From Candidatus Falkowbacteria bacterium (lineage in GTDB: Bacteria > Patescibacteriota > Patescibacteriia > UBA11705 > JABHMO01), in NCBI GenBank assembly GCA_018665965.1, contig JABJBF010000023.1, positions 64,001 through 77,692 on the forward strand: a DNA stretch of 13,692 nucleotides. The letters run 5' to 3'. A program made the translations under genes and the position numbers. Numbering within the stretch: position 1 is the first letter of the stretch; each line of letters opens with the position of its first letter. The notes beneath the pieces were generated by a model. That model saw nothing but the letters and a program-made list of their open reading frames with translations, did not search any database and had not been told where the DNA came from. Positions 1-13,692 of the stretch are shown here, piece after piece.

Positions 1-86
1 TGCTTTCATGTTTTTATGTTTTAATGGACAAAAAAACTCCCCAATAGATGCATTGAAGAGTTTTTCTTGACCGTTGCGGTCAGAAA

Positions 87-764
87 TTAGAAGGTTAGCG
101 CTACTGAGGCGAAGAACATATCTCCGCAGTCGCAGTCAGTACAGCGAGGTTGTGCGTTCACCGGCGTTGGCTGATTTGTGGAACTTTGCTTTGTACCGGA
201 TTCTTCCTGATGAAGGTATCCGGCCCAAACTCGAAGCCACTGCCAGGTGAAACTGGGTCCGAACCGATATCGGAAGTTGTCCAGCTTTTCCTGTTCCAGT
301 CCGAGCGAGATGAACATCCTGCGCTCGATCATAAAGTCAAGTGACTCGTAGGTTCTGAAGCCGACCGTGGGTTGGCTCTCGGCATTGTTGGCCTGGATGG
401 GAATGAAAAGATCCGCCTCCAACTTGAAACCTACAACCCGACTTACACGTTGATGCCAGCGACCGGTCAGAGCTACATTGTTGCTGCTCACGCCTGCGCC
501 CAACTGTTGACCAATCATCAGAACCAGTTTACTGTTCCGATCGACGTGGTACAACAGACCAAACATGGCATTCATCGTCTGGTAGTCAGTGATAAATGCA
601 TTGGCCTCGAACAGGACATCGAAGTTGTGAAACGCCCAGGACTCTATTGCACGGCTGAATCGCACGCGCATGTCAAAGTTTGACATATCCACATCTTTTG
701 CTTGCACGTTGCTGGCAAACATAATTATTCCTAAAATCACAAACAAATTGATGAACTTTCTCAT
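87..764 (-). CDS. Secreted hypothetical protein, 225 aa, with a cleavable N-terminal signal peptide and a GC-rich body. The C-terminus ...SVALTF resembles the terminal strand of an outer-membrane beta-barrel. Possibly DUF2490-like, but the family is unsure.
   Basis: The minus-strand ORF starts MRKFINLFVILGIIMFASNVQA-KD, a classic n-h-c signal peptide. A perfect AAGGAGG SD sits 5 nt upstream of the ATG (plus coordinates 765-779). A consensus promoter lies upstream. The body (about 100-640) is roughly 55-60% GC against about 33% for the rest of the window. The C-terminal residue is Phe, preceded by alternating hydrophobic residues. The + strand ORFs at 150-344 and 372-683 overlap antisense and are treated as artefacts. 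Confidence 0.6.
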   Translation of the reverse strand: MRKFINLFVILGIIMFASNVQAKDVDMSNFDMRVRFSRAIESWAFHNFDVLFEANAFITDYQTMNAMFGLLYHVDRNSKLVLMIGQQLGAGVSSNNVALTGRWHQRVSRVVGFKLEADLFIPIQANNAESQPTVGFRTYESLDFMIERRMFISLGLEQEKLDNFRYRFGPSFTWQWLRVWAGYLHQEESGTKQSSTNQPTPVNAQPRCTDCDCGDMFFASVALTF

Positions 765-811
765 GGTATCCTCCTTAAGGGAAAGTTATTTTTCAATCAT
801 CAAATCTTAGT

Positions 812-840
812 ATTATAGCATAGATTATATATTTTGTCAA
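812..840 (-). promoter_or_regulatory. Consensus sigma70 promoter on the minus strand, TTGACA-17nt-TATAAT, driving the 87-764 gene.
   Basis: Plus-strand tgtcaa at 835-840 is the reverse complement of TTGACA. The spacer 818-834 is 17 nt. Plus-strand attata at 812-817 is the reverse complement of TATAAT. That is about 45 nt upstream of the ATG at 764. Confidence 0.5.
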
Positions 841-879
841 TAGTCGTTAAGTAAATTTAGACAAAATTAGTCTACGTAA

Positions 880-1206
880 TTGAAATTTATGGCGGATTCA
901 CTACAAAAAATATTACTTTCTAGATTTAAGAAAAAACCACTGGCTAAACAAATAATGTCCGGTATGGTTGTTGAGTTTGCCAATGGTTTAATGCGTGAAT
1001 TTTGGGGAAAAAAGGGGCACGAGCTGGTTAGAGTTATTTCATTGAAGAGTCAGATCTTGAAAGTTGAGACTGCTAATTCAATTATTGCTCAGGAACTAAA
1101 TTTTAAGAAAAATTCAATAATTGAGGCTATCAACAAGAAATTTGGTGGTCAAATAGTAAAAAAGCTGAAAATTGTACAAACCTCTATTGAAAGACCAGTA
1201 TATTAA
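880..1206 (+). CDS. DUF721-family (DciA-like) small protein, 108 aa.
   Basis: The ORF translation has the recognisable DUF721 pattern ...AKQIMSGMVVEFANGLMREFWGKKGHELVRVISLKSQILKVETANSIIAQELNFKKNSIIEAINKKFGGQIVKKLKI. There is no clear SD. The start could alternatively be M4 at 889. Confidence 0.55.
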   Translation: MKFMADSLQKILLSRFKKKPLAKQIMSGMVVEFANGLMREFWGKKGHELVRVISLKSQILKVETANSIIAQELNFKKNSIIEAINKKFGGQIVKKLKIVQTSIERPVY

Positions 1207-1228
1207 TGCTAAAATTGATATAGGCAAT

Positions 1229-1612
1229 ATGACCATAACTAGGTATTCAATCATTTTATCAGTTTGCTGTGCTATCTGTTGGGCAGCCTGGATTTTGGTT
1301 TTAATTTTTATAAATCCATTTGAAGCTGGGATATTAGGTTTGTTTTTATTTTACATTAGTTTAGCTTTTTCCTTGGGATCTTTGCTGTCGTTGTTCGGTA
1401 TTTGGGTCAGAATTAAATTACTAAAAAAAGATGAAGTCCCGCAAAAGAGTATTAGCCTAGCTTCAAGGCAAGCAATATTATTTACTTTTATAATCATCAT
1501 GGCTTTGATTTTACAAAGTCAAAGATATTTGACCTGGTGGTTGATGTTGATTGTAATTTCTTTCACTACGGTTATTGAATTATTTTTCATTTCATATAAA
1601 AAACTCAATTAG
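1229..1612 (+). CDS. Small integral membrane protein of about 127 aa with 3-4 predicted TM helices. Function unknown.
   Basis: The ORF track gives 1172-1612, which would overlap the previous gene by 35 nt. The internal ATG at 1229 (MTITRYSIILSVCCAICWAAWILVLIF...) removes the overlap. The sequence has highly hydrophobic segments typical of TM helices. Confidence 0.45.
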   Translation: MTITRYSIILSVCCAICWAAWILVLIFINPFEAGILGLFLFYISLAFSLGSLLSLFGIWVRIKLLKKDEVPQKSISLASRQAILFTFIIIMALILQSQRYLTWWLMLIVISFTTVIELFFISYKKLN

Positions 1613-1656
1613 ATTACAGATTAATGATTTAAGATTAAAGATTTTGGTAATTGTTC

Positions 1657-1681
1657 ACTTGAATCTATCAACTTGAATCTA
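1657..1681 (+). repeat. Direct repeat ACTTGAATCTA x2, 3 nt apart, ending 9 nt before the proS ATG.
   Basis: cACTTGAATCTAtcaACTTGAATCTActaacattATG is read directly. It is a possible operator or leader element for the proS-mre operon. Confidence 0.4.
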
Positions 1682-1689
1682 CTAACATT

Positions 1690-2931
1690 ATGCGTCAATC
1701 AAAACTATTCACCAAAACAATTAAGGAATTACCAAAAGATGAAGTCAGTACCAATGCAAGCTTATTAATTAGAGCTGGTTTTGTAGATAAATTAATGGCC
1801 GGAGTTTATTCATATTTACCATTGGGATTGAGGGTTTTGGATAAAGTGAAAAAGATTGTTAGGGAAGAAATGGAGGTCATTGATGGTCAGGAAATATTAA
1901 TGCCGGCATTAACACCAAAGGAAATCTGGCAAAAAACTGGACGTTGGGAAAGTCCAGGTCCTGAGGTAATGTTTCAGCTTAAGGGTCGTAGTGAAAAGGA
2001 CTATGGTTTAGGCTGGACCCACGAAGAAGTGGTTACTCCATTGGTACAAAAGTTTGTTAAATCATATAAGGACTTGCCTGTGGCTGTTTATCAAATTCAG
2101 GATAAGTTCCGCAATGAACCTAGAGCTAAATCAGGAATATTGCGTGGTTTAGAATTTAGCATGAAAGATTTATACAGTTTTCATCTTAATGAGGAGGACA
2201 TGTGGCAATACTATGAAAAATCCAAAGGAGCATATTTGAATGTATTCAAACGTTGTGGTTTGAACGCTAAAATAGTGGAGGCTTCAGGTGGCGACTTTTC
2301 TAAATACTCACATGAGTTTCAGGTTTTTACTGATAGCGGAGAAGATACAGTTTTTTACTGCGATAAATGTGACTTTGCACAGAATGATGAAATTTGCGAA
2401 GTTAAAATTGGCGATAAATGTCCTAAATGTGGTGGTCAAATTTTAGAGGCCAAGGCCATTGAGGTTGGAAATATTTTTCCATTAAAAACCAAATACAGTA
2501 CTGCTTTTAATTTTAAATATACTGATAAAGATGGCAAGGAACAACCAGTGATCATGGGTTGTTATGGTATTGGGCCATCTAGGGTTATGGGGTCTGTAAT
2601 TGAGGTTCACCATGACGACAAAGGTATGATTTGGCCTGAGTCTATTGCTCCATTCAAGGTGCATTTGCTTTTCCTTGGAAAAGACGCTAAAATTAAGGCT
2701 GTTAGTGACAAACTCTATGATGAGTTGCAGCAGGCTGGAATTGAGGTTTTATATGATGATAGAGAGGAATCAGCTGGCGTGAAATTGAATGATAGCGATT
2801 TACTTGGTATGCCATATAGAATTGTGGTTAGTGAAAAAACCTTGGCCCAAGAAAGCATAGAATTCAAGCAACGAAATCAAGAAAAAATGGAATTGATTAA
2901 ACTTAATCAAATTGTTAAAAAGTTGACATAG
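1690..2931 (+). CDS. proS: Prolyl-tRNA synthetase, a minimal bacterial-type form of 413 aa with no INS editing domain.
   Basis: The N-terminus MRQSKLFTKTIKELP...LLIRAGF...GVYSYLPLGLRVLDKVKKIVREEM matches bacterial ProRS. Class II motif 2 is ...KFRNEPRAKSGILRGLEF. Motif 3 is GCYGIGPSR. Between motifs 2 and 3 there are only about 130 aa, containing CDKC...CPKC. Confidence 0.9.
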   Translation: MRQSKLFTKTIKELPKDEVSTNASLLIRAGFVDKLMAGVYSYLPLGLRVLDKVKKIVREEMEVIDGQEILMPALTPKEIWQKTGRWESPGPEVMFQLKGRSEKDYGLGWTHEEVVTPLVQKFVKSYKDLPVAVYQIQDKFRNEPRAKSGILRGLEFSMKDLYSFHLNEEDMWQYYEKSKGAYLNVFKRCGLNAKIVEASGGDFSKYSHEFQVFTDSGEDTVFYCDKCDFAQNDEICEVKIGDKCPKCGGQILEAKAIEVGNIFPLKTKYSTAFNFKYTDKDGKEQPVIMGCYGIGPSRVMGSVIEVHHDDKGMIWPESIAPFKVHLLFLGKDAKIKAVSDKLYDELQQAGIEVLYDDREESAGVKLNDSDLLGMPYRIVVSEKTLAQESIEFKQRNQEKMELIKLNQIVKKLT

Positions 2932-2950
2932 GAGGGCAGGGAGTTAGTTT

Positions 2951-4006
2951 ATGTTTAGAAAATTCTTAAATAGGTTTTCAAAAAAGATTGGGATTGATTT
3001 AGGCACAGCTAATACAATTTTGTGTTTGCAGGATAAAGGAATAATTATTCGTGAACCATCAATTGTAGCTGTGAATAATCGTTTGGATCAGATTATCGCA
3101 GTGGGCGAAGATGCTCGCAAGATGGTTGGCAAAAACCCAGCATATATTACTTTGGCATATCCCTTGGTTCGAGGGGTTATTTCTGATTTTGAAGTAACTG
3201 AAAAAATGCTAAAGTATTTTTTTGACAAAATTTTCCAAGAGAATCTTAATTTTACAGCTAGGCCTAGTGTGATTATTGGCATCCCTCTGGACGTTACCGA
3301 GGTAGAAAAAAAGGCTGTCGAAGATGCAGCTCTGGGTGCAGGAGCGGGAAAAGTTTTCTTGGTTGAAGAAATAATGGCCGCCGCTATTGGTGCACGTCTG
3401 CCGGTTCAGGATGCTTCGGGTAGTATGTTGATAAATATGGGTGGTGGTAAAACTGAGATTGCAGTTATCTCATTACACGGCGTAGTTATTTGGAAATCAT
3501 TAAAAATAGCTGGTGAAGATTTAAGTAAAAATATTATTCAATATGCTCGAGATCACTTTAATTTGTTAATTGGTGAAAAGATTGCTGAGCAAATAAAAAT
3601 AAAAGTTGGATCTTCTCATGAACAAGGAGAATCAATTTCTATCGAAATGAGAGGGCGGGATTTAATCACAGGTTTGCCAAGGGAGATTATGATCAACGAT
3701 TATCAGGTGAGGGAGGCATTGGCCTCAACGGTTAACCAGGTGGTGGATTCAATTAAAAGTGTTTTGGAAATAACTCCACCAGAATTAGTCGCTGATATTT
3801 ATGAAAGAGGAATTATTCTTTGTGGCGGTGGATCGTTGCTCCGCGGAATTGAAAAAACTATTAGTAAAGAAACTGAAATTCCAGTGAGAATAGCCGATGA
3901 TCCAACAACCTGCACAATTCGAGGTATTAATTTACTTTTGGATGATGAAAAATTATTGGAACAAGTTTTATTACCTTCAGCGAATGAGGAGAAAATGGTG
4001 AGGTAA
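2951..4006 (+). CDS. mreB: Rod-shape determining actin homolog MreB.
   Basis: 351 aa. It contains IGIDLGTANT...REPSIVAV...GGGKTEIAVISL...CGGGSLLRGI, the actin-fold phosphate and adenosine motifs typical of MreB. Confidence 0.92.
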   Translation: MFRKFLNRFSKKIGIDLGTANTILCLQDKGIIIREPSIVAVNNRLDQIIAVGEDARKMVGKNPAYITLAYPLVRGVISDFEVTEKMLKYFFDKIFQENLNFTARPSVIIGIPLDVTEVEKKAVEDAALGAGAGKVFLVEEIMAAAIGARLPVQDASGSMLINMGGGKTEIAVISLHGVVIWKSLKIAGEDLSKNIIQYARDHFNLLIGEKIAEQIKIKVGSSHEQGESISIEMRGRDLITGLPREIMINDYQVREALASTVNQVVDSIKSVLEITPPELVADIYERGIILCGGGSLLRGIEKTISKETEIPVRIADDPTTCTIRGINLLLDDEKLLEQVLLPSANEEKMVR

Positions 4007-4017
4007 TTTGATAAAAA

Positions 4018-4093
4018 CATTAAAGCATTAAAATATTAAAGCATTAAAGCAATTGCTATAGGTGTTCTAGTGTTCTCGTGTTCTGGTGTTTTC
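4018..4093 (+). repeat. Two adjacent short tandem arrays, 4x CATTAAAG-like 8-mers (4018-4049) and 4x GTGTTCTN 8-mers (4062-4093), in the mreB-mreC spacer.
   Basis: cattaaag cattaaaa tattaaag cattaaag ... gtgttcta gtgttctc gtgttctg gtgtttt(c)ATG. The second array overlaps the first ATG (4070) of the mreC ORF. Confidence 0.5.
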
Positions 4094-4915
4094 ATGGTAA
4101 TGTTAAATAGAAAATCAACAAAATTAATTATTGTTTCAGTGGTAATTGTTCTACTGCTGTTTTTTTTACATTACATAAAAGTTCTAAGACCAATTGAAAA
4201 TTTGGCTGTGTCAGCTACTAAACCAGTATTAAGATCAGTTTACCAAATCTCTTATTGGGTGGGGGATAATTATTTGAATTTTAGGTCTAAACAAGCTTTG
4301 GTCCAAGAGAATAAGGATTTGAAGGATCAATTAGCAATGCTGATTAACGAAAAAAGTAGATGTGTGTCTGAACAAGAAGAAAATCAATTTTTGCGTGAAC
4401 AAATGCAGTTTGTAGACAAAAATCAATATTTGTTTGAAATCGCTAGAGTGATTGGTCAAAGTGCCGACGGTTCACAAAATGCCTTGATCCTTGATGTTGG
4501 AAGTAAGGTCGGAATTGAGGTAGGGCAGCCTGTTTTAGCAGAACAAAATATGTTGATTGGCAAAATTATCAAAGTCAATAAAAATAGTTCTATTGTTTTG
4601 TTAATTAATGATGATTTGTCAAAGGTAGCTGCGAGGATCCAGAATAAATCACGAACAATAGGGGTGGTAGAGGGTGAGTTTGGCTTGGGAATAAAAATGC
4701 GTTTAATCCCACAGACTGAGATGATAAAAGAGGGCGATATAATAGTAACTTCAGGTTTAGAACAAAAAGTGCCGGGAAATATTGTAATTGGTCAGATCAA
4801 GAGTATTGTTAATGAGCCAGAAGAGTTGTTTCAGGAGGCCGCTTTGGCCTCCATGGTTGATTTCAATAAAATCAATATAGTAAATATTTTGAAATATAAT
4901 CAAGACGATGATTAA
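4070..4915 (+). CDS. mreC: Rod-shape determining protein MreC.
   Basis: N-terminal TM (KLIIVSVVIVLLLFFL), then a coiled-coil region (ENKDLKDQLAMLINEK), then beta domains (GDIIVTSGLEQKVPGNIVIGQIKSIV). The true start is probably ATG 4094 or 4100 (MVMLNRK...), with GGTG 6 nt upstream. The 4070 ATG lies inside the 8-mer repeat. Confidence 0.82.
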   Translation: MFSCSGVFMVMLNRKSTKLIIVSVVIVLLLFFLHYIKVLRPIENLAVSATKPVLRSVYQISYWVGDNYLNFRSKQALVQENKDLKDQLAMLINEKSRCVSEQEENQFLREQMQFVDKNQYLFEIARVIGQSADGSQNALILDVGSKVGIEVGQPVLAEQNMLIGKIIKVNKNSSIVLLINDDLSKVAARIQNKSRTIGVVEGEFGLGIKMRLIPQTEMIKEGDIIVTSGLEQKVPGNIVIGQIKSIVNEPEELFQEAALASMVDFNKINIVNILKYNQDDD

Positions 4916-5447
4916 GCTAATCAAACACACTTTTTTTATTTTATTATTGGCGGGTCTACAGCTAGGAATGGTAGCGCTCTTTCCTGCAAACTTAGGCAAG
5001 ATTAATGTTTTGATAGTAGTATTGATTTTTATTTCAATGGTGGGTCGGTTTTCAATTGGGACTACCTACGCATTTATACTAGGTGTAATTTTGGATTTAT
5101 ATTCTGCTTTGCCTTTTGGGGCTTTACTGGTTAGTTTATTATTAACAATGTATGTCGCCTACAAGATATTTGTACATTTTCTTACTAATAAATCTCTTTA
5201 TACGCTAGTTGGGCTGACTGTAATTTCCACGATTGTTTATAATGCTTTTCTCTACATGTACACGGCTGTCAATTACCTGATAAAGGTCAAGGACTATTCT
5301 TTGATTAATCATTTAACTGTAAATTCTATAAATGATTTACTCTGGCAAATTTTGTTTAATTTAGTTCTTTCTGTTTTGTTATTTGCAGTGTTTAACTTAT
5401 TTAGCCGAAGGTTTAAGGCTGTCTTTATAGATACTACCAAACAATAA
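4908..5447 (+). CDS. mreD: Rod-shape determining protein MreD, a polytopic membrane protein.
   Basis: The 179-aa protein is almost entirely hydrophobic, with about 5 TM segments. Its ATG overlaps the mreC stop (ATGAttaa). Position and size fit mreD. Confidence 0.72.
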   Translation: MIKLIKHTFFILLLAGLQLGMVALFPANLGKINVLIVVLIFISMVGRFSIGTTYAFILGVILDLYSALPFGALLVSLLLTMYVAYKIFVHFLTNKSLYTLVGLTVISTIVYNAFLYMYTAVNYLIKVKDYSLINHLTVNSINDLLWQILFNLVLSVLLFAVFNLFSRRFKAVFIDTTKQ

Positions 5448-5449
5448 AT

Positions 5450-7474
5450 ATGCGTTGGCGTTTATTTTTCAGAAAAAAGCACAATAAAAGTAACCTGCCT
5501 GAAGACGGTTTTTTGTTTTTGGGTGGAGGTTTAAATATAAATGATGAAAATTCCAAAAAAAGAAAAAGGACAGCTTGGGTTGAAGAGGCTTATATCGATT
5601 TTTCAGAAGATGAATTAGCGCGTACAGGCAAGAATTACTTGGGCTTAAGTTTGAGTAATAAAAAACTGGTTTGGTTTTTGATGTTTGTTCTTGCCTGTTT
5701 TTTTATTTTGTTTTTGCAGTCATTCTTTTTGCAGGTAGTACGTGGTGAGTATTATCACGGCCTAGCTGAGCAAAATCGCCTTAGAGTTATTAATTTGCCA
5801 GCTCCACGTGGAATAATTTATGATTTGAATGGTCAAGAGCTGGTAAAAAATGTGCCTAACTTTGCAGTCTACATAATCATGTATGATTTAAAATTGGAAA
5901 CGGATAAGAATCAGGAGGAAACGTTGACGTGGTTGAAACAAAATATTGAAGACCCTGATTATCAGGAAAAGTTAGAAAAAGTTTTGAAGACAAAAGCAAC
6001 TGTTAAAGAATACTTTGAGCCAGTGATGTTAATTGATGGCTTGACCTATGAAAAAGCTGTTACCATGCGTATACAGAGTACTAATCATCCCGGAGTGGAC
6101 ATTGAAGTTGCAGCTCGACGTCAATATTTGGACAAAAAAAACAATCAATCAGTAAGTAGTTTAGCACATATTTTGGGTTATCCTGGTAAGATTAATCCTG
6201 AAGAATTTTCAAAGTTATATTCACAGGGTTATTTGTTAAATGATTCCATCGGAAAAACTGGAATAGAAGGATCTTTTGAAAACCAACTTCGTGGACAATA
6301 TGGTCGAGAACAGATTGAAGTTGATTCCAGCGGAAAAGCTATAAAAATTATTGCTAGAGAAGAAATGGTTAAGGGTGATAATTTATTTTTAGCTATTGAT
6401 TTGACGATGCAAGCCAAATTACAAGAAATAATTGAAAAATATTTAGTAAAGTTAAAAACCAATAAAGCCGCTGCTGTCGTAATGAATCCTCAAACTGGAA
6501 AAATTTACAGCTTGCTTAGTCTTCCTGGTTTTAATAATAATTCATTTGCTGAGGGAATTAGTTCCAAAGAGTTTGCTTATTTGATTAACAATAAGGACAA
6601 CCCACTTTTTAATAGGGTAATTAGTGGTGAATACCCATCTGGGTCGACAATTAAACCGGTCGTGGCCGCAGGTGCATTGGAAGAAGGTGTCATAAATGAA
6701 AATACTTCCTTTTTGAGTGCCGGTGGAATTAGAATAGGCGAGTGGTTTTTCCCTGATTGGAAGGCTGGTGGTCATGGTATTACTAATGTTCGAAAAGCAC
6801 TGGCTGATTCGGTTAATACCTTTTTCTATATCATTGGTGGTGGTTATGGTGAGTTTGAGGGCATGGGCGTTCGGCAAATCAAGCAAGTTGCTGAAATGTT
6901 TGGCTTAAATAAATTAACAAATATAAGTTTGCCCAATGAAAAGCCAGGATTTTTACCAGATCCAGAGTGGAAAAGAAAAGCCAAAAGTGAGCAATGGTAT
7001 ATTGGTGACACCTATCATATGGCTATAGGTCAGGGTGATTTATTAGTTACACCATTACAAGTAGCAAATTTTACGGCAGTCTTTGCCAATGGTGGAAAAT
7101 TACTGAAACCAATATTGATTGACCGTTATTATGATCAGGTTGCAAAGAAAGAAGTTCAAATCGAAACAGAAATACTCAATGAACAGTTTGTGGCTGATAA
7201 AACTTTGCAAATAATTCGTCAGGGGTTAAGGCAGGCCGTAACGCAAGGAAGTGCTAAGATTTTAAATTCATTGCCGGTCACCGCCGCTGCTAAAACTGGA
7301 ACTGCTCAGTGGGCTACTGACAAAACTCCCCATTCTTGGTTTACTTCATTTGCTCCGTATAATGATGCAGAAATTGTGGTGACCATTTTGGTTGAAGAAG
7401 GTGGCGAAGGAAGTGCGATTGCAGCACCGATTGCTTATGAGTTTATGCATTGGTATTTTAACTATTATAAGTAA
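5450..7474 (+). CDS. mrdA: Penicillin-binding protein 2 (class B transpeptidase, elongasome PBP).
   Basis: SxxK is present in GSTIKP, SxN in DSVNT and KTG in KTGTAQ. The PBP2 N-terminal signature LQVVRGEYY follows the TM helix. The start is 2 nt after the mreD stop. The cytoplasmic N-terminus before the TM is unusually long, about 75 aa. Confidence 0.9.
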   Translation: MRWRLFFRKKHNKSNLPEDGFLFLGGGLNINDENSKKRKRTAWVEEAYIDFSEDELARTGKNYLGLSLSNKKLVWFLMFVLACFFILFLQSFFLQVVRGEYYHGLAEQNRLRVINLPAPRGIIYDLNGQELVKNVPNFAVYIIMYDLKLETDKNQEETLTWLKQNIEDPDYQEKLEKVLKTKATVKEYFEPVMLIDGLTYEKAVTMRIQSTNHPGVDIEVAARRQYLDKKNNQSVSSLAHILGYPGKINPEEFSKLYSQGYLLNDSIGKTGIEGSFENQLRGQYGREQIEVDSSGKAIKIIAREEMVKGDNLFLAIDLTMQAKLQEIIEKYLVKLKTNKAAAVVMNPQTGKIYSLLSLPGFNNNSFAEGISSKEFAYLINNKDNPLFNRVISGEYPSGSTIKPVVAAGALEEGVINENTSFLSAGGIRIGEWFFPDWKAGGHGITNVRKALADSVNTFFYIIGGGYGEFEGMGVRQIKQVAEMFGLNKLTNISLPNEKPGFLPDPEWKRKAKSEQWYIGDTYHMAIGQGDLLVTPLQVANFTAVFANGGKLLKPILIDRYYDQVAKKEVQIETEILNEQFVADKTLQIIRQGLRQAVTQGSAKILNSLPVTAAAKTGTAQWATDKTPHSWFTSFAPYNDAEIVVTILVEEGGEGSAIAAPIAYEFMHWYFNYYK

Positions 7475-7704
7475 AAAGTAACGAGTAAAAGGTAAAATGT
7501 AATTCTATTTACTCTTTACACTTTACTATTTACTATATTGTTGTATATTAACCAAAAATGAACTATAATTTAAATATAATCAAATTTTATTAAATCAGGT
7601 AATAAACGTATCTGTGTTTATTTTGAAAAAAGTGGAGTTGTGATTTTGCTGATAATTTGAACTCAAGTTATCTCCTTTGTCACCTTTATCCCATTTGTAT
7701 TATG

Positions 7705-8166
7705 TCAGACCACATTATTTTAACAGAAGAAGGTAAAGTCAAGCTAGAGAAAGAGTTAGAACAAATAAAAAAAGTAAGATTACCAGCAGTTATTGAAAAA
7801 ATCGAACAAGCTAAGGAAATGGGGGATTTATCAGAAAATGCCGAGTATCATGATGCTAAGGATGAGCAGGGTTTAATGATGGCACGTGCCAGTGAGATTG
7901 AAGGTTGTTTGAAAATAGCAATTATTTCTGAGCCTAACACTTCAACTGATGAGGTTGGGATGGGATCATGTTTTATAGCCGAGGACGCCACTGGCAATCG
8001 AAAAGAATACACCGTGGTGGGGTTTAACGAGGCTGATCCTGCAGTTGGTAGAATTTCCAATGAGTCGCCAATTGGGCAAGCTTTTATGAATAAGAAGCCA
8101 GGTGAGACCGTTGAATTTGAAGCACCACGAGGAACTATTGTTTTCAAAATTATTGAAATTAAGTAA
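7705..8166 (+). CDS. greA: Transcription elongation factor GreA.
   Basis: MSDHIILTEEGKVKLEKELEQIKKVRLPAVIEKIEQAKEMGDLSENAEYHDAKDEQG... matches the GreA N-terminal coiled coil and the C-terminal FKBP-like domain. The ORF-track start at 7657 adds 16 non-conserved residues, so 7705 is preferred. Confidence 0.86.
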   Translation, partial: SDHIILTEEGKVKLEKELEQIKKVRLPAVIEKIEQAKEMGDLSENAEYHDAKDEQGLMMARASEIEGCLKIAIISEPNTSTDEVGMGSCFIAEDATGNRKEYTVVGFNEADPAVGRISNESPIGQAFMNKKPGETVEFEAPRGTIVFKIIEIK

Positions 8167-8193
8167 TTACATAATACGTATCACATAACACAT

Positions 8194-8217
8194 AACAGCA
8201 GTTTAGTTGTTTTTTTG
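8194..8217 (+). terminator. Weak intrinsic terminator after greA.
   Basis: aacagc-agttta-gttgtt forms a 6-bp stem with one G-U pair, followed by TTTTTTT. Confidence 0.3.
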
Positions 8218-8233
8218 TTTGGATAAAAAATGG

Positions 8234-8262
8234 TTGACAAAAATTAAGGTTTATTATAAACT
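8234..8262 (+). promoter_or_regulatory. Candidate sigma70 promoter for the small-gene pair, TTGACA-15-TATAAA or TTGACA-17-TAAACT.
   Basis: ttgaca is at 8234-8239 and tataaa at 8255-8260. The ORF A start at 8289 follows. Confidence 0.4.
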
Positions 8263-8288
8263 CTTTTGAAGTGATATGGAGGTGAATA

Positions 8289-8531
8289 ATGAGTGAAAGC
8301 AAGTATAGGCAATGGTTTCGTAAATCATTTTGGCGATCGAATAAAGATAGCAAAGATGGAATCGCTGAAGTTAATGACGGCTGCGTGCAAGCTGTTCTGG
8401 ATTTTGTGAATAAACACGGAATTGGAAGTTCTGATTATAAGATAGTGCCAATAACCTATGGAAGGGACGGCAACGGCGACGATTTTATGAATATTCAGTT
8501 GGCCTATTTTGCTGAAGAAGAGTTGAAATAG
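8289..8531 (+). CDS. Small hypothetical protein A, 80 aa. It is a paralog of the next gene.
   Basis: Strong SD GGAGGTG 5 nt upstream of the ATG. It shares an ordered series of motifs with ORF B: R-[ST]-x-KD, D-x-G-x5-FVN-[KR], aromatic-K-[IL], and the C-terminal Y-[FL]-[AS]-EE-x-L-[KE]. Confidence 0.6.
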   Translation: MSESKYRQWFRKSFWRSNKDSKDGIAEVNDGCVQAVLDFVNKHGIGSSDYKIVPITYGRDGNGDDFMNIQLAYFAEEELK

Positions 8532-8539
8532 GAGGCGTT

Positions 8540-8779
8540 ATGTCAAAAGTAGACACACCTCTAGAGTGGCAGATACGTGTATTCAGAACACACAGTAAAG
8601 ATCACGGTAATACTTATGACGACACTTTTGATGCTGGTCAAAGATTGGCCAAAGAGTTTGTTAATAGAAATAAAGCTGACATTAAGAAATTTAAGTTAAG
8701 TACCGCGATTGGGGATTCAGAGAATAGTTGTTCTTATTATGTGTACGTGTGGTACCTGAGTGAAGAAGCATTGGAGTAG
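8540..8779 (+). CDS. Small hypothetical protein B, 79 aa. It is a paralog of the preceding gene.
   Basis: SD AGGAGG overlaps the TAG stop of ORF A (aaaTAGGAGGcgttATG), indicating translational coupling. The same motif series as ORF A is present (FRTHSKD..DAGQRLAKEFVNRN...FKL...YLSEEALE). Confidence 0.6.
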   Translation: MSKVDTPLEWQIRVFRTHSKDHGNTYDDTFDAGQRLAKEFVNRNKADIKKFKLSTAIGDSENSCSYYVYVWYLSEEALE

Positions 8780-8821
8780 AAGTCAATAAGCGTTCTGGCA
8801 ATCTGGGACGTTTTTTATTTT

Positions 8822-8850
8822 TTGCAAAATTTTGCTAATTCAGGTATAAT
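8822..8850 (+). promoter_or_regulatory. Near-consensus sigma70 promoter TTGCAA-17-TATAAT upstream of the GxxExxY gene.
   Basis: ttgcaa is at 8822-8827, with a 17-nt spacer and tataat at 8845-8850. Confidence 0.5.
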
Positions 8851-8892
8851 TCTGTAAGTGAGTACTGAATAATACTGATATGCTGAATATTT

Positions 8893-9285
8893 ATGAGTAT
8901 TAATGTAAACAAAAATTATCCAGAATCGGAATTAACTGATAAAATAATAGGTGCAGCATTTGAAGTTTAAAATAGCTTAGGCAGTGGGCATAGAGAAAAG
9001 TATTATCAGTTGGCACTTGCTAAAGAGTTTAGACTTAATAAGATAAGGTATAAGGAACAGGTTAGAGTAGATCTTTTGTATAAAGGAGAAAAAATTGGTC
9101 GAAGAATATTTGATTTCGTTATAGATGGGCGGGTTGTCGTTGAGTTGAAGGTTGGTAGTTATCTTGCTAAAAGTGAATTCGATCAAATTAATGATTATTT
9201 AAGAATTTCTGGAAAAAAAGTTGGTTTGTTAATTTTATTTTCAAATAAAGGTGTTAAAATACGACGTGTTGTAAATTTAAAATAA
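8893..9285 (+). pseudogene. GxxExxY-family (PD-(D/E)xK nuclease fold) gene interrupted by a single in-frame TAA at 8968-8970.
   Basis: Reading from ATG 8893 gives MSINVNKNYPESELTDKIIGAAFEV*NSLGSGHREKYYQLALAKEF.... This continues in frame into the track ORF at 9010-9285 (...RRIFDFVIDGRVVVELKVGSYLAK...GLLILFSN). It matches the family consensus, including IIGAA.EV, the G-x-x-E-x-x-Y motif (GHREKYY) and the D...ELK catalytic motif. The stop replaces the usual His/Tyr after EV. There are no frameshifts. Confidence 0.65.
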
Positions 9286-9325
9286 ATTCAATAAGATTTG
9301 CTGATATTTACGTTCAGTAAATCAG

Positions 9326-9331
9326 TATAAT
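9326..9331 (+). promoter_or_regulatory. Perfect -10 hexamer TATAAT 15 nt upstream of the lysS ATG, implying a very short leader.
   Basis: cagTATAATtcagtaatcaattgtATG. The -35 is poor. Confidence 0.3.
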
Positions 9332-9346
9332 TCAGTAATCAATTGT

Positions 9347-10816
9347 ATGGAACAAAACGAAGAAGCAGTTCGCCTGCAAAAATTAGAAAAACTACAATCA
9401 ATGGGAGTAGAGCCTTATCCAGCTAAGTTTGACAAGAAACAGACTCTGGCTGAATGTAAAGAAATGAAGGAGGGCAAAAAAGTAAAGACTGCCGGTCGTT
9501 TAGTAATGTTTCGTGATATGGGCAAATTAACCTTTGCTCACTTAAGTGACTTTTCTGGTCGCATGCAAATTGCGTTCAAGCAAGATGATTTAGGTAAGGA
9601 TGATTATAAACAATTACAAAAAATAATTGATCTGGGTGATTTTATTGGAGTGGAAGGTGAGCTTTTTGTAACGCACAAAGGTGAACTAACTATCCTTGTT
9701 AATAAATGGACCTTTCTTGGTAAAGCTTTGAAACCATTACCTGAAAAATGGCATGGACTGAAAGATGTGGAAGCAACATACCGTCAGCGTTACTTGGATT
9801 TGATCTCCAATCCGGAAACCATGCAACGCTTTCAACTCCGTAGTAAATTTATCAGAGCTCTGCGGGAGTTTTATTGGCAAGAAGATTTTTTCGAAGTTGA
9901 GACTCCGACTTTACTGCATAGTGCCACTGGCGCGCATGCCAAACCTTACAAGACCCATAATAACGGTTTAGATATTGATGTGTTTCTTCGAATCTCACAT
10001 GAACTTCCATTGAAGCAATTGATCATTGGTGGTTATGATAAAATTTTTGAAATTGGCAAAGCATTCAGGAATGAAGGTATTGACCCATCACATTTACCAG
10101 AGCATACTCATTTAGAACATTATTGTGCTTATTGGGATTTTGAAGATAATATAAAATTCACTGAAAAGATGTTTGAATTTATTTTTAAGAAATTAAATTT
10201 ACCACATGAACTTGAAATTACCGGTAAGGATGGCAAAAAACGGAAAGTTAATTTCAAAACTCCGTGGAAGCGAGTGGACTTTATTGAGTTGGTAAAGAAA
10301 GATTGTGGGTTAGACGTTGCTAAGTATAAGAACCCAAAAGATTTAGTGAAAGATTTGAAAAAGAAGAAGATTCAAGTTGATGATATGGAGCATATGGGAC
10401 TGGCAACTTTGATTGATAACCTTTACAAAAAAGTTTCTCGACCAAAAATTATTGATCCAGTATTTTTATATCATTATCCAATTGAATTACAGCCCTTGGC
10501 GCGACGTAATGATGATGATTCAGAAATCGTTGACCAATTTCAGTTGGTTGTCGGTGGTTGGGAAATTGTCAAAGCTTATTCAGAGTTAGTTGACCCAATA
10601 GATCAAGAAAAACGATTCAAGGATCAGGCGAAACTTAAAAAATCTGGTGATGACGAAACCATGGAAGGTGATCCAGAATTTGTAGATTCAATGAAATACG
10701 GCATGCCACCAATTTCTGGTTGGGGAATGGGAATTGATCGAATTTTAACAATCCTGACTGAGCAAGATAATCTTCGTGATGTAGTTTTCTTTCCGTTGAT
10801 GAAACCAAAAGAATAA
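9347..10816 (+). CDS. lysS: Lysyl-tRNA synthetase, class II.
   Basis: 489 aa. The N-terminal OB-fold anticodon-binding domain is followed by a class II core with ...GKAFRNEGIDPSHLPEHT... (motif 2) and ...GMPPISGWGMGIDRILTIL (motif 3). Confidence 0.92.
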   Translation: MEQNEEAVRLQKLEKLQSMGVEPYPAKFDKKQTLAECKEMKEGKKVKTAGRLVMFRDMGKLTFAHLSDFSGRMQIAFKQDDLGKDDYKQLQKIIDLGDFIGVEGELFVTHKGELTILVNKWTFLGKALKPLPEKWHGLKDVEATYRQRYLDLISNPETMQRFQLRSKFIRALREFYWQEDFFEVETPTLLHSATGAHAKPYKTHNNGLDIDVFLRISHELPLKQLIIGGYDKIFEIGKAFRNEGIDPSHLPEHTHLEHYCAYWDFEDNIKFTEKMFEFIFKKLNLPHELEITGKDGKKRKVNFKTPWKRVDFIELVKKDCGLDVAKYKNPKDLVKDLKKKKIQVDDMEHMGLATLIDNLYKKVSRPKIIDPVFLYHYPIELQPLARRNDDDSEIVDQFQLVVGGWEIVKAYSELVDPIDQEKRFKDQAKLKKSGDDETMEGDPEFVDSMKYGMPPISGWGMGIDRILTILTEQDNLRDVVFFPLMKPKE

Positions 10817-10858
10817 ATATTACACAAATATTGTACAAATATTAAACAAATATTATTA
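10815..10858 (+). repeat. Four tandem copies of an 11-nt unit AAATATTnnnn immediately after the lysS stop.
   Basis: aaatattacac aaatattgtac aaatattaaac aaatattatta. Confidence 0.45.
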
Positions 10859-10861
10859 ATA

Positions 10862-10896
10862 AAAAACTCCGGTTCAATGTTGAGCACGGAGTTTTT
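10862..10896 (+). terminator. Palindromic intrinsic terminator for lysS, potentially bidirectional.
   Basis: aaaactccg - 15-nt loop - cggagttttt. An A-run precedes and a T-run follows, so it can terminate in either direction. Confidence 0.55.
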
Positions 10897-10902
10897 AGTT
10901 AG

Positions 10903-10935
10903 AAAAAAGCCCTAACCGATTGTCTGGTTAGGGCT
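10903..10935 (-). terminator. Intrinsic terminator oriented for minus-strand transcripts.
   Basis: Perfect 9-10 bp stem gccctaacc / ggttagggc with an 8-nt loop. AAAAAA precedes it on the plus strand, which is a U-run on the minus strand. Confidence 0.45.
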
Positions 10936-10985
10936 GTAGCGAAGCACACCTTCCGCTCGGGGCAGAGCGAGGAGGATTGTAAATC
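10903..10985 (-). ncRNA. Candidate small RNA of about 80 nt on the minus strand, with a CCUCCUC anti-SD motif, two GC hairpins and an intrinsic terminator.
   Basis: The minus-strand reading is ...tttact-17-tataat (plus-strand attata at 10987-10992), then uugauuuacaauCCUCCUCgcucugccccgagcg (hairpin), gaaggugugcuucgc (hairpin), and a terminator hairpin plus U-run. There is no ORF. This rests purely on structure and promoter logic. Confidence 0.25.
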
Positions 10986-11114
10986 AATTATAATATATGT
11001 AATGAAACAAGTAAAGTGAGATCACGTACCGAAATAAGGTCAAGAGCTTGGCAACATTTGTAGTGGAGTTAAATGTAATTAATTCTAGGATATAAATGTT
11101 CATAATTATTGTAT

Positions 11115-11245
11115 TTAGCCACCTGGCCCTGAAAGGGCCAGGCTAAGTTTTGTAAAGGCTACTAAAGTAGCCTGAAGAGACTTAGCCCCATTTATGGGGG
11201 TTTAGAATACAAATAGCCTGGGGTTTTCAACCCCAGGTGGCTAAG
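11115..11245. repeat. GC-rich nested inverted-repeat element with four hairpins and the GGCTAAG/CTTAGCC motif four times. It is a candidate structured ncRNA or riboswitch-like switch, or alternatively a MITE-like palindromic repeat.
   Basis: Hairpin A is 11115-11147 (ttagcc-ca-cctggccc-tgaaa-gggccagg-ctaag). Hairpin C is 11157-11172 (ggctac-taaa-gtagcc). Hairpin D is 11186-11199 (cccca-ttta-tgggg). Hairpin B is 11214-11245 (tagcctgggg-ttttcaa-ccccagg-tgg-ctaag). The 5' half of A (ttagccacctgg, 11115-11126) is perfectly complementary to the 3' half of B (ccaggtggctaa, 11233-11244). This gives mutually exclusive local and long-range folds. Confidence 0.4.
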
Positions 11246-11299
11246 TAGGCAAAATTTAACTCATTAATATTGCAAAGGTATTGAACCATTACGACGTAC

Positions 11300-11328
11300 T
11301 TGACAATTTAAGATTTATGTTATATACT
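11300..11328 (+). promoter_or_regulatory. Consensus sigma70 promoter TTGACA-17-TATACT for the zinc-ribbon gene.
   Basis: ttgaca is at 11300-11305, with a 17-nt spacer and tatact at 11323-11328. Alternatively TGn-TATATA (extended -10) at 11318-11326. Confidence 0.6.
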
Positions 11329-11371
11329 GTATTCTTCTAGTGACAGCTGTTAATTTAGTGGAGGTAATATC

Positions 11372-11581
11372 ATGAGTGTTGTAATTTGTCGGGACTGCGG
11401 GAAAAGCAAGTCTTTTTCTGCAATTGTCAGTGAGACTGGAGTGTGCAAGGATTGTGATGGGAAGCTGAGTGGTGAGAGAAGGACTCAGGCGCGCAATGCA
11501 GCGACATTCTCCACGTTCAAATTTGGCTCTGACAGAGAGAGGGAGGAAAGAATTGCTCATTTGGCCAGTATTGATCGCTAA
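11372..11581 (+). CDS. Small C4 zinc-ribbon protein of 69 aa (CxxC-x15-CxxC at the N-terminus, charged C-terminal tail). It resembles FmdB/zinc-ribbon-type putative regulators. GC-rich.
   Basis: SD GGAGG at 11360-11364 lies 7 nt before the ATG. MSVVICRDCGKSKSFSAIVSETGVCKDCDGKL.... A consensus promoter lies upstream and a strong terminator follows the stop. GC is about 48-50% against about 33% for the genome. The overlapping minus ORF at 11315-11674 and the + ORF at 11469-11657 are treated as artefacts. Confidence 0.6.
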   Translation: MSVVICRDCGKSKSFSAIVSETGVCKDCDGKLSGERRTQARNAATFSTFKFGSDREREERIAHLASIDR

Positions 11582-11611
11582 TAAGTATTTAGCTAGAAAT
11601 GATACACAAGA

Positions 11612-11642
11612 AGGCGCGAAACAATGTTTCGCGCCTTTTTTA
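11612..11642 (+). terminator. Strong rho-independent terminator.
   Basis: aggcgcgaaaca-a-tgtttcgcgcct is a perfect 12-nt inverted repeat (11612-11636) followed by TTTTTT. Confidence 0.7.
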
Positions 11643-11915
11643 GTACATTTTGAATAAAAATGCCCCAAATGCACTGTGCAAATGGGGCTCCTCCAGATTT
11701 AGGTGCAGCCATATAGGGATTGTTACTGAATACAGCTTCTACTGCAATTCTCAAATTTTAGCTATTATCTCCTAAAATTCTTTCAACAATATTAATACAT
11801 TGCCTCATGAATTTTTGAAGATTCTATCACAGGATTTTAGAGTTTCGTGACGAACCTGTTTTCTGTAACAAGCCCTTAAGGAGGACTGAGCAATATAGCA
11901 TACATTTTTGGTTTT

Positions 11916-11962
11916 GTCAACCTGTTGTTCTACAGCCATGCAGTATCGCATGGCAGGTTGAC
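11916..11962 (+). promoter_or_regulatory. Nested stem-loop just upstream of the putative serS promoter. An orphan AAGGAGG at 11877-11883 precedes it.
   Basis: gtcaacctg(9 bp)-ttgttctacag-ccatgc-agtatc-gcatgg-caggttgac. An overlapping second hairpin follows: accttg...caaggt (11961-11987). The element lies within a 560-nt ORF-free region. Confidence 0.3.
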
Positions 11963-11991
11963 CTTGAGTTGACCGAAAGGCCAAGGTTATT

Positions 11992-12020
11992 TTGCTAAAT
12001 TTTGTGATATTTAGTATAAT
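11992..12020 (+). promoter_or_regulatory. Candidate sigma70 promoter TTGCTA-17-TATAAT for serS.
   Basis: ttgcta is at 11992-11997, with a 17-nt spacer and tataat at 12015-12020. A second TATAAT lies at about 12127-12132, after a ccccttgggg palindrome. Confidence 0.45.
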
Positions 12021-12200
12021 AGTTCATATGAAAACACCTAATAAACAATACTAAATACCCAATTCTTACTGAAAATTATCGACTGGACATTTCATATTGT
12101 ATATTTTCCTATTTTTCCCCTTGGGGGTATAATATTTTTGATATTTTATAAATATCTCAACTCTTAACTTTATAAACTTTTTAACTTTTAACTAAATAAT

Positions 12201-13466
12201 ATGCTAGACATAAAATACATTCGTGAAAACAAGGAGCAGTTGAAACAAATTGCTCGACATAAAAATATTCAGGTTGATATTGATAAGCTTTTACAATTAG
12301 ATGAAAAACGTAGAAAGCTAACGCAACAACTTGAGGAATTACGCACTCGCAAGAATCAGGTTAGTAAACAAATTCCACAAATGCAGGAAAGTGAAAAACA
12401 ACAAGCGTTTGTTGAAATGAAGGAAGTTAGCGCACTGCAAGACGAGATTGAGGGCAAGTTAAAGCCACTTCTGACTGAATATGAAAATTTAATGTTGAGT
12501 GTTCCAATGTATATTCATGAAAATGTGCCAATTGGTGCAGATGAAAGTGGTAACATTGAAATTGAAAAGGTGGGTGAACCGACAAAGTTTGATTTTCCTC
12601 CCAAGGATCATATGACACTTGGTGCTGATCTGGATATTATTGACAATGAACGCGCTGTAAAAATTGGAGGTAGTCGATCTTACTTATTGAAAGGTGATGG
12701 CGCGCGATTGGAAGCCGCAGTTCTTAAATATGCAGAAGATTTCATTTCTCGCAAAGGTTATACTCTGATGAATGTACCAGTGATTGTTAATGAAGCTGCT
12801 ATGAGAGGCACTGGCTTTTTCCCTGGATCAGAGGATGAAACCTATCACCTGGAAAAAGATGACAAATATTTAGTTGGTACATCTGAAGTTGCTATTGGTT
12901 CATATCATGCTAATGAGATTTTAAAAGAAGAAGATTTACCACTTCGTTACGCCGGCTTTTCAGTTTGTTTTCGCCGTGAAGCAGGTTCTTATGGAAAAGA
13001 TACTCATGGTTTGTACAGAGTTCATCAGTTTATGAAGATTGAGCAGTTTGTTATTTGCAAAAATGATGAGAAGGTATCTATGGAAATGCATGCTGAATTA
13101 TTGAACAATTCAAAAGAGTTTATGCAAAGTCTAAAGTTACCATTCCGAGTTTTGAATATTTGTACTGGTGACATGGGACAAGGTAAATATTATATGAATG
13201 ATATTGAGACCTGGATGCCTAGTCGAGAGGGCTATGGTGAAACTCATAGTGCATCAGCTTTGCTGGACTTTCAATCACGTCGATTAAATCTTCGATATAA
13301 AGACAGTGAAGGTCAAATTCATTTTTGTCATACATTAAATAATACAGTTGTAGCTACACCAAGAGTTTTGATTCCGTTAATGGAAATTTATCAAACCAAG
13401 GATGGTAAAATTCAAGTTCCAGAAGTTCTTCAGCCGTATATTGATAATCAGCAGGAGATTGGTTAA
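12201..13466 (+). CDS. serS: Seryl-tRNA synthetase, class II.
   Basis: 421 aa. The N-terminal coiled-coil tRNA-binding arm (KEQLKQIARHK...LEELRTRKNQVSKQI) is followed by the catalytic core with ...FRREAGSYGKDTHGLYRVHQF (motif 2) and ...GETHSASA.... No T-box leader sequence was recognised upstream. Confidence 0.92.
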   Translation: MLDIKYIRENKEQLKQIARHKNIQVDIDKLLQLDEKRRKLTQQLEELRTRKNQVSKQIPQMQESEKQQAFVEMKEVSALQDEIEGKLKPLLTEYENLMLSVPMYIHENVPIGADESGNIEIEKVGEPTKFDFPPKDHMTLGADLDIIDNERAVKIGGSRSYLLKGDGARLEAAVLKYAEDFISRKGYTLMNVPVIVNEAAMRGTGFFPGSEDETYHLEKDDKYLVGTSEVAIGSYHANEILKEEDLPLRYAGFSVCFRREAGSYGKDTHGLYRVHQFMKIEQFVICKNDEKVSMEMHAELLNNSKEFMQSLKLPFRVLNICTGDMGQGKYYMNDIETWMPSREGYGETHSASALLDFQSRRLNLRYKDSEGQIHFCHTLNNTVVATPRVLIPLMEIYQTKDGKIQVPEVLQPYIDNQQEIG

Positions 13467-13478
13467 CGTTTACCTCAC

Positions 13479-13692
13479 ATGCTAAACCCAGAATCCCAAC
13501 AATTAACTGAAAAATCTCTCCACGCTAACTTCACTGAAAGTCAGCAACGACATTTTGATAAATTAATGTCTGAGTTGGAAGTGCTTTCAGGTGGCTTAGG
13601 CTTTGCTGAACTTAAAGTAAAAGCTGAAGCTGGTGATAAAGAAGCGCTTCAAGTGATGCGCGATTATATTGCGAAGAAAGAACAAATTGTGG
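13479..13692 (+). CDS. Partial ORF (N-terminal 71 codons, running off the window), hypothetical protein.
   Basis: The ATG at 13479 is 12 nt after the serS stop. The frame stays open to the window end (MLNPESQQLTEKSLHANFTESQQRHFDKLMSELEVLSGGLGFAELKVKAEAGDKEALQVMRDYIAKKEQIV). It is not in the ORF track, presumably because it is incomplete. Confidence 0.35.
   Translation, partial: MLNPESQQLTEKSLHANFTESQQRHFDKLMSELEVLSGGLGFAELKVKAEAGDKEALQVMRDYIAKKEQIV

Follow-up and report, generated by a model that had tools for sequence, protein, structure and literature searches.

What are the two small genes that lie side by side between greA and lysS in a population of Falkowbacteria (Patescibacteria, also known as the candidate phyla radiation, CPR), and what might their products do together? 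They were found in a 13,692-nucleotide (nt) stretch of DNA, hereafter the window, whose gene order is dciA, proS, mreB, mreC, mreD, PBP2, greA, open reading frame (ORF) A, ORF B, an interrupted PDDEXK_3 gene, lysS, a gap of 1.4 kb and serS. The coordinates that the initial annotation gave for ORF A (8289..8531, + strand; 80 aa; hypothetical protein HN858_00830 at NCBI) and ORF B (8540..8779, + strand; 79 aa) were exact; both calls are backed by orthologues in a sister species and by structural models, and that of ORF B also by a B-type profile match in a third species. Their placement was equally correct: Pfam domains and synteny put greA (7702..8166, + strand; GreA_GreB_N and GreA_GreB) upstream and lysS (9347..10816, + strand; tRNA_anti-codon and tRNA-synt_2) downstream, where the two genes mark the limits of an insertion hotspot. 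What we say below about the family, its fold and its evolution we regard as secure. What the pair does is a more tentative matter, and the explanation that we favour as a whole, a non-enzymatic, hetero-oligomeric accessory binding module, is put forward as a possibility rather than a conclusion.

The paired genes and their family

A and B had been described as diverged duplicates belonging to no known family, and both parts of this description are borne out. Direct comparison by pairwise BLASTP is marginal, with a collinear alignment across 73 residues at 21% identity and E = 0.042. Paralogy is decided because a third paralogue in relatives bridges A and B, and because their profiles match each other. 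In the sister species, represented by locus L001 (its GreA is 88% and its LysS 96% identical to that of the window), the greA-lysS junction holds three genes in the order C-A'-B'; a comparison of its C (8796-9032) gives E = 4e-8 against A and 2e-4 against B. This C has TAG instead of CAG at codon 8 in four independent samples (L001-L004); as had been predicted, an intact allele also exists, the 78-aa P0008 on another contig, whose full-length alignments reach E = 1e-9 to A and 2e-4 to B. As a separate observation, re-initiation 6 nt past the stop could still give a 68-aa product from the allele with the nonsense codon. An hhalign comparison of the A-type with the B-type profile covers 72 columns at a probability of 95% (E = 3.5e-8). 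Together these alignments show that A and B are true diverged paralogues, even though direct BLASTP reaches only its marginal value. Among the shared motifs first proposed, three hold exactly (FVN[KR], aromatic-K-[IL] and, at the C-terminus, Y-x-[AS]-EE-x-L-[KE]), and 'R-[ST]-x-KD' and 'D-x-G-x5' are one residue off in one protein.

The family is very small. A word-indexed protein search of 5.8 billion clusters returned five proteins, all from the window or L001, and a five-member profile, run exhaustively by HMMER over 1.84 billion representatives, returned five matches, one of them new (P0006, E = 1e-6). The locus that encodes P0006, L009, has the same synteny (GreA 61% and LysS 67% identical to the window) and carries four paralogues, p1 to p4, and an unrelated membrane protein between greA and lysS. 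All known members are at this junction, in two copies in the window, three in L001 and four in L009; by both protein searches they are proteins of 68-95 residues from three species only, all uncultured, and a local hmmsearch with a nine-member profile found no further member in any ORF of any fetched locus. Neither A and B nor the full set of nine members has a significant match in Pfam, NCBIfam, PHROGs or PADLOC, Pfam giving no match for any of the nine at E up to 10, and NCBI and JGI annotate the members as hypothetical proteins. A sequence profile search of the PDB found no family match (best E = 0.2); its top candidate, the ribbon-helix-helix protein 2k1o, was rejected because the AlphaFold2 (AF2) models have a single long helix together with three strands.

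Between the 3' end of greA and a promoter-like site that precedes lysS, the pair makes up a bicistronic unit complete in itself, with, in order, promoter, strong Shine-Dalgarno (SD) sequence, A, stop-overlapping SD, B and terminator. The sigma-70-like promoter, TTGACA-17-TAAACT (8234..8262, + strand), matches the consensus at 10 of 12 positions, and an identical TTGACA-17-TAAACT precedes the L001 array. The SD of A, GGAGGTG (8278..8284, + strand), lies 4 nt 5' of the ATG and, with an anti-SD duplex energy of -15.2 kcal/mol, is the strongest among 14 scored candidate start sites in the window. The SD of B, AGGAGG (8530..8535, + strand; -10.2 kcal/mol), lies 4 nt 5' of the B ATG and overlaps the TAG stop of A (8529-8531), just as had been noted; the TAGGAGG overlap recurs in L001, and in L009 only 2 nt separate the A-type stop from the B-type start. 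A hairpin scan places an intrinsic terminator, an 11-bp stem followed by a T-run, at 8788..8823 (+ strand); it is kept in L001 at 9544-9569, and L009 has a terminator after its last paralogue too. From this arrangement A and B are predicted to be co-transcribed and translationally coupled.

The initial annotation had also ranked both SDs as the strongest in the window. This holds for A but not for B, since an AGGAGG far upstream of mreB reaches -10.7 kcal/mol and a 69-aa ORF at 11372 has GGAGGT. Its remark that the surrounding housekeeping genes mostly lack an SD is correct for proS (start at 1690), mreD (4908), PBP2 (5450), greA (7702), lysS (9347) and serS (12201), at all of which the duplex energy is -1.1 kcal/mol or weaker. 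Near-perfect SDs on small accessory ORFs, against none on these housekeeping genes, seem to reflect two modes of translation initiation in this genome.

The order of the pair is retained beyond the sister species. Because the best foreign match of the A-type profile is L009 p3 (2e-8) and that of the B-type profile is L009 p4, which is P0006 (5.5e-14), pair order and coupling are conserved, and by these profile matches the coupled A-type-then-B-type pair is the core of the array in all three species. Additional copies are found upstream of this core, one (C) in L001 and two (p1 and p2) in L009; the window has none.

Both proteins are still under purifying selection. Between the window and L001, the flanking genes have dN of 0.009-0.072, dS of 0.69-1.6 and dN/dS of 0.013-0.045. 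A, 68% identical to its L001 orthologue, has dN 0.187, dS 0.87 and dN/dS 0.21, and is constrained yet evolves about four to five times faster than its neighbours. B, about 35-42% identical to its orthologue, has dN 0.55 with saturated dS, so that dN/dS is not computable; it evolves about ten times faster than the neighbours, and keeps its length and a clear similarity to P0006 over a far deeper split. The GC content at third codon positions (GC3) is modestly higher in A and B (36-40%) than in flanking genes (27-32%). In L009 the four paralogues (8996-10288) have a GC content of 46-50% against 36-38% in their flanks, with GC3 of 45-56%, a sign that they are of foreign origin or else that their codons are selected for strong expression. 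The population behind the window is very clonal: window positions 1-13692 show 0 nucleotide mismatches, over up to 13.7 kb, to contigs from four JGI/ENA/NCBI samples (L005-L008). A single-residue variant of B, G33C (P0007), occurs on one other contig.

The suggestion that the greA-lysS junction is an accessory insertion site was followed up by synteny, with GreA as the probe, in 16 further loci taken from genomes and metagenomes. The block mreC-mreD-PBP2-greA-lysS-serS is widely conserved across them. The greA-lysS spacer is empty (58-150 nt) in several relatives (L030, L019/L028 and L022). Others carry unrelated genes there: L015 has a 98-aa zinc-ribbon-like ORF together with one of 66 aa, L016/L021 a 240-aa HD-domain protein, and L017 a 331-aa protein. 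The junction is a variable insertion hotspot, and the family occupies it. We found no repeats on either side of A and B as a unit; a meaningful direct repeat occurs only around the PDDEXK_3 insertion.

Predicted fold and possible function

AF2, run with a five-sequence alignment, gave models of similar confidence for A (strand 8-17, helix 25-43, strands 50-59 and 65-75; mean predicted local distance difference test, pLDDT, 86.4) and for B (strand 9-18, helix 26-43, strands 50-60 and 63-74; pLDDT 87.5). Both models follow the order of the SHS2 module, strand-helix-strand-strand, with a three-stranded antiparallel sheet on one helix, and we predict with good confidence that A and B each consist of one such SHS2, or dodecin-like, module. 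As cited in PMC12744356, SHS2 modules were defined by Anantharaman and Aravind (2004) and include GyrI/SbmC, archease/MTH1598, the N-domain of Rpb7 and FtsA 1C. The sequence family is undescribed, while the predicted fold itself is a known and common module.

Among nine members only F39, Y73 and L79 are invariant, W9 and the C-terminal E-E-x-L being nearly so; Y66, Y67, Y69 and Y72 are invariant in the B type. The alignment of the nine shows no conserved polar constellation of catalytic type. Because conservation is confined to core residues and the acidic Y-x-x-E-E-x-L tail, with no polar residues of catalytic type, a complex of A and B would be a binder or scaffold rather than an enzyme. The Trp that opens strand 1, near-invariant in the family, and the B-type Tyr-x-Tyr-x-Trp ladder in strand 3 would lie on the open face of the sheet. 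The family members are cytoplasmic.

A three-stranded sheet that is covered by a helix on one face normally pairs its open face, as in the GyrI-like double SHS2 fold, dodecin and MinE. Coupled translation would yield A and B in near-equal amounts and so favour a hetero-oligomer, and pairing of A with B through their open sheet faces would bury the exposed face. A heterodimer is suggested because the A-type-then-B-type coupling is conserved in three species, and we put the chance that A and B form a hetero-oligomer at about even. We propose that such a complex might sequester or neutralise a protein or small molecule, after the manner of SbmC/GyrI or ExiA-ExiB. The hotspot site, the change in copy number, the rapid divergence and the narrow distribution together suggest an accessory and possibly protective role; a protective or neutralising function is rather doubtful.

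The closest parallel is ExiA/ExiB (DUF5085), a cytoplasmic immunity heterodimer against the type VII secretion system (T7SS) toxin EsxX of Staphylococcus aureus (PMC12744356). Like A and B, these are adjacent paralogues with an SHS2-based fold, and they act as a heterodimer by binding rather than catalysis (PMC12744356). In contrast to A and B, with one module each, ExiA and ExiB each contain the SHS2 module in duplicate, as a GyrI-like fold, and their genes accompany that of the toxin (PMC12744356); A and B share no sequence similarity with them, and no toxin or T7SS gene is near A and B. Similarly, A and B differ from the GyrI-like domain (PF06445) in having one module per chain and no Pfam match. 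SIMPL-like/BP26 proteins (PDB 7c50, 4hvz) are periplasmic and about 190-250 aa long, and the match covers one of their sub-domains, with 8-13% identity. Neither A nor B has a signal peptide or hydrophobic N-terminus.

Several observations weigh against the binding-module explanation. Foldseek found no match at E<0.1 against the PDB, fold matches being weak and generic, and no match below E = 0.04 against BFVD. The placement of the aromatic residues on the open face was read from the alternation of strand residues, without coordinates. In L009 a TTGACA box and a GGAGG-type SD stand before each of p1, p2 and p3, although only the site before p2 scored as promoter-like, and a scan found no + strand terminator between p1, p2 and p3; with such boxes before the upstream copies, strict stoichiometry is therefore not universal. 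In the three species no toxin, secretion-system or defence gene adjoins the array, its neighbours being greA, lysS, a transmembrane protein or the PDDEXK_3 pseudogene. The sole match in PADLOC-DB, PDC-S67 at E = 0.013, involves one of the nine members and does not place the family in a defence system. The initial annotation had raised an immunity, antitoxin or stress role for the pair; no gene for a toxin, secretion or defence lies close by, PADLOC offers no support, and nothing points specifically there. Finally, three L009 paralogues carry Lys/Arg-rich N-terminal extensions (for example RRKKKKKEKK and RRRKKKKPRK; pI, the isoelectric point, 9.3-9.9), which point to nucleic-acid or membrane binding.

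These extensions lead to the main rival, that A and B are abundant small nucleic-acid-binding proteins, RNA chaperones or nucleoid-associated proteins, in which aromatic and basic residues of the sheet stack on bases, the paralogues forming a Csp-like set. Besides the basic tails, the composition of strand 1 agrees with this reading, being aromatic and basic in both A (WFRKSFWR) and B (WQIRVFR), as do strand 3 of B (YYVYVWY) and the combination of a near-consensus promoter with strong SDs in a region where housekeeping genes have none. A and B of the window are, however, acidic (pI 5.25 and 5.63) and have no basic tails. Core nucleic-acid chaperones do not usually have a range of three species or evolve four to ten times faster than the neighbouring genes, and none of the nucleic-acid-binding families gives a sequence match. 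We consider nucleic-acid binding unlikely, if still the best of the alternatives.

A less probable alternative, to which we give little weight, is that A and B are functionless or decaying orphans, mobile or phage remnants surviving by chance in a permissive hotspot between genes. The very narrow distribution, the very fast divergence of B and the compositionally foreign L009 copies are what such remnants might show; moreover, the third copy bears a nonsense codon in four L001-type samples and is absent from the window, and the adjoining PDDEXK_3 gene is itself broken. Against this stand the dN/dS of A, with a dS like that of its neighbours, and the preservation of frames, lengths, pair order and coupling across species whose LysS proteins are only 67% identical; the promoter, SDs and terminator are likewise conserved, and the A and B models are confident and concordant. 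A phage origin also finds no homologue in IMG/VR, INPHARED or PHROGs, the best PHROG match being at E = 0.048, with none in tblastn against phages at E up to 1 and none in the IMG/VR scans.

A dodecin is built from twelve copies of the product of one gene and holds flavin between Trp residues. That A and B form dodecin-like cages storing a scavenged cofactor (flavin or CoA) for a symbiont unable to synthesise it is the least probable reading, and very improbable, for although a by-eye likeness to Mycobacterium tuberculosis dodecin was seen in S-x-DG and the acidic C-terminus, hhalign against an alignment of two mycobacterial-type sequences (M. tuberculosis Rv1498A and PDB 6ri3) rejected it with a probability of 0.04%, there is no profile similarity to the Pfam family (PF07311; no match at E up to 10), and known dodecins are one-gene homo-oligomers rather than coupled heterologous pairs such as these paralogues.

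Other features of the locus

The decayed PD-(D/E)xK (GxxExxY-type) neighbour reported in the initial annotation is a full-length PDDEXK_3 gene (8893..9285, + strand) with one in-frame TAA at 8968-8970. If the TAA is translated as Q, the product aligns with positions 2-116 of the 117 in the PF13366 profile (E = 1.8e-29), and the part after the TAA alone still matches at E = 1.6e-18; the TAA is identical in all samples, and the GC content of the gene is low (29%). The view of this gene as part of the same island as A and B did not hold, since it is absent from L001 and L009 and has its own 14-nt direct repeat, GTATAATTC[T/A]GTAA, at 8844-8857 and 9325-9338. The upstream copy of the repeat (8844-8857) includes the -10 hexamer TATAAT (8845-8850) of the promoter-like site 5' of lysS, TTGCAA-17-TATAAT (8822-8850). 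This arrangement gives the gene the appearance of an insertion of its own in the lysS leader.

Elsewhere at the junction, L009 encodes a 111-aa protein directly 3' of greA (8547-8882). This protein has one N-terminal transmembrane helix, matches nothing in Pfam or PADLOC and is not encoded in the window. On the other side of lysS, the gap to serS measures 1.38 kb in the window (10817-12200) against 140-860 nt in relatives. It contains a 69-aa CxxC...CxxC ORF (11372-11581) that, much like A and B, has a TTGACA promoter, a GGAGGT SD and a terminator to itself, and also paired GC-rich hairpins at about 11120-11240 that belong to no Rfam family at threshold. This gap may be a second accessory hotspot. 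Rfam and tRNA scans found no RNA genes in the window.

Implications

Drawn together at its widest, our proposal is that A and B are the core of an undescribed single-module SHS2 family in one Falkowbacteria clade, in which a hetero-oligomer, shaped as a split GyrI-like cleft or a small cage, would serve as a stand-alone protective or sequestering system or as a nucleoid- or RNA-binding set, with tandem expansion at a fixed hotspot. Taken in all its parts, this picture is speculative and unlikely.

CPR genomes are rich in small lineage-specific proteins, and A and B are an unusually clean case, combining a confident predicted fold, a co-translated pair, copy numbers of two, three and four, and expression signals that stand out. 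It is unusual for an SHS2 module to occur in coupled but separate subunits whose genes are multiplied in tandem at a single fixed site. If the pair is a hetero-oligomeric binder, it would represent a minimal SHS2 module deployed as separate subunits rather than by internal duplication, and it would provide a handle on the accessory functions of episymbiotic bacteria.
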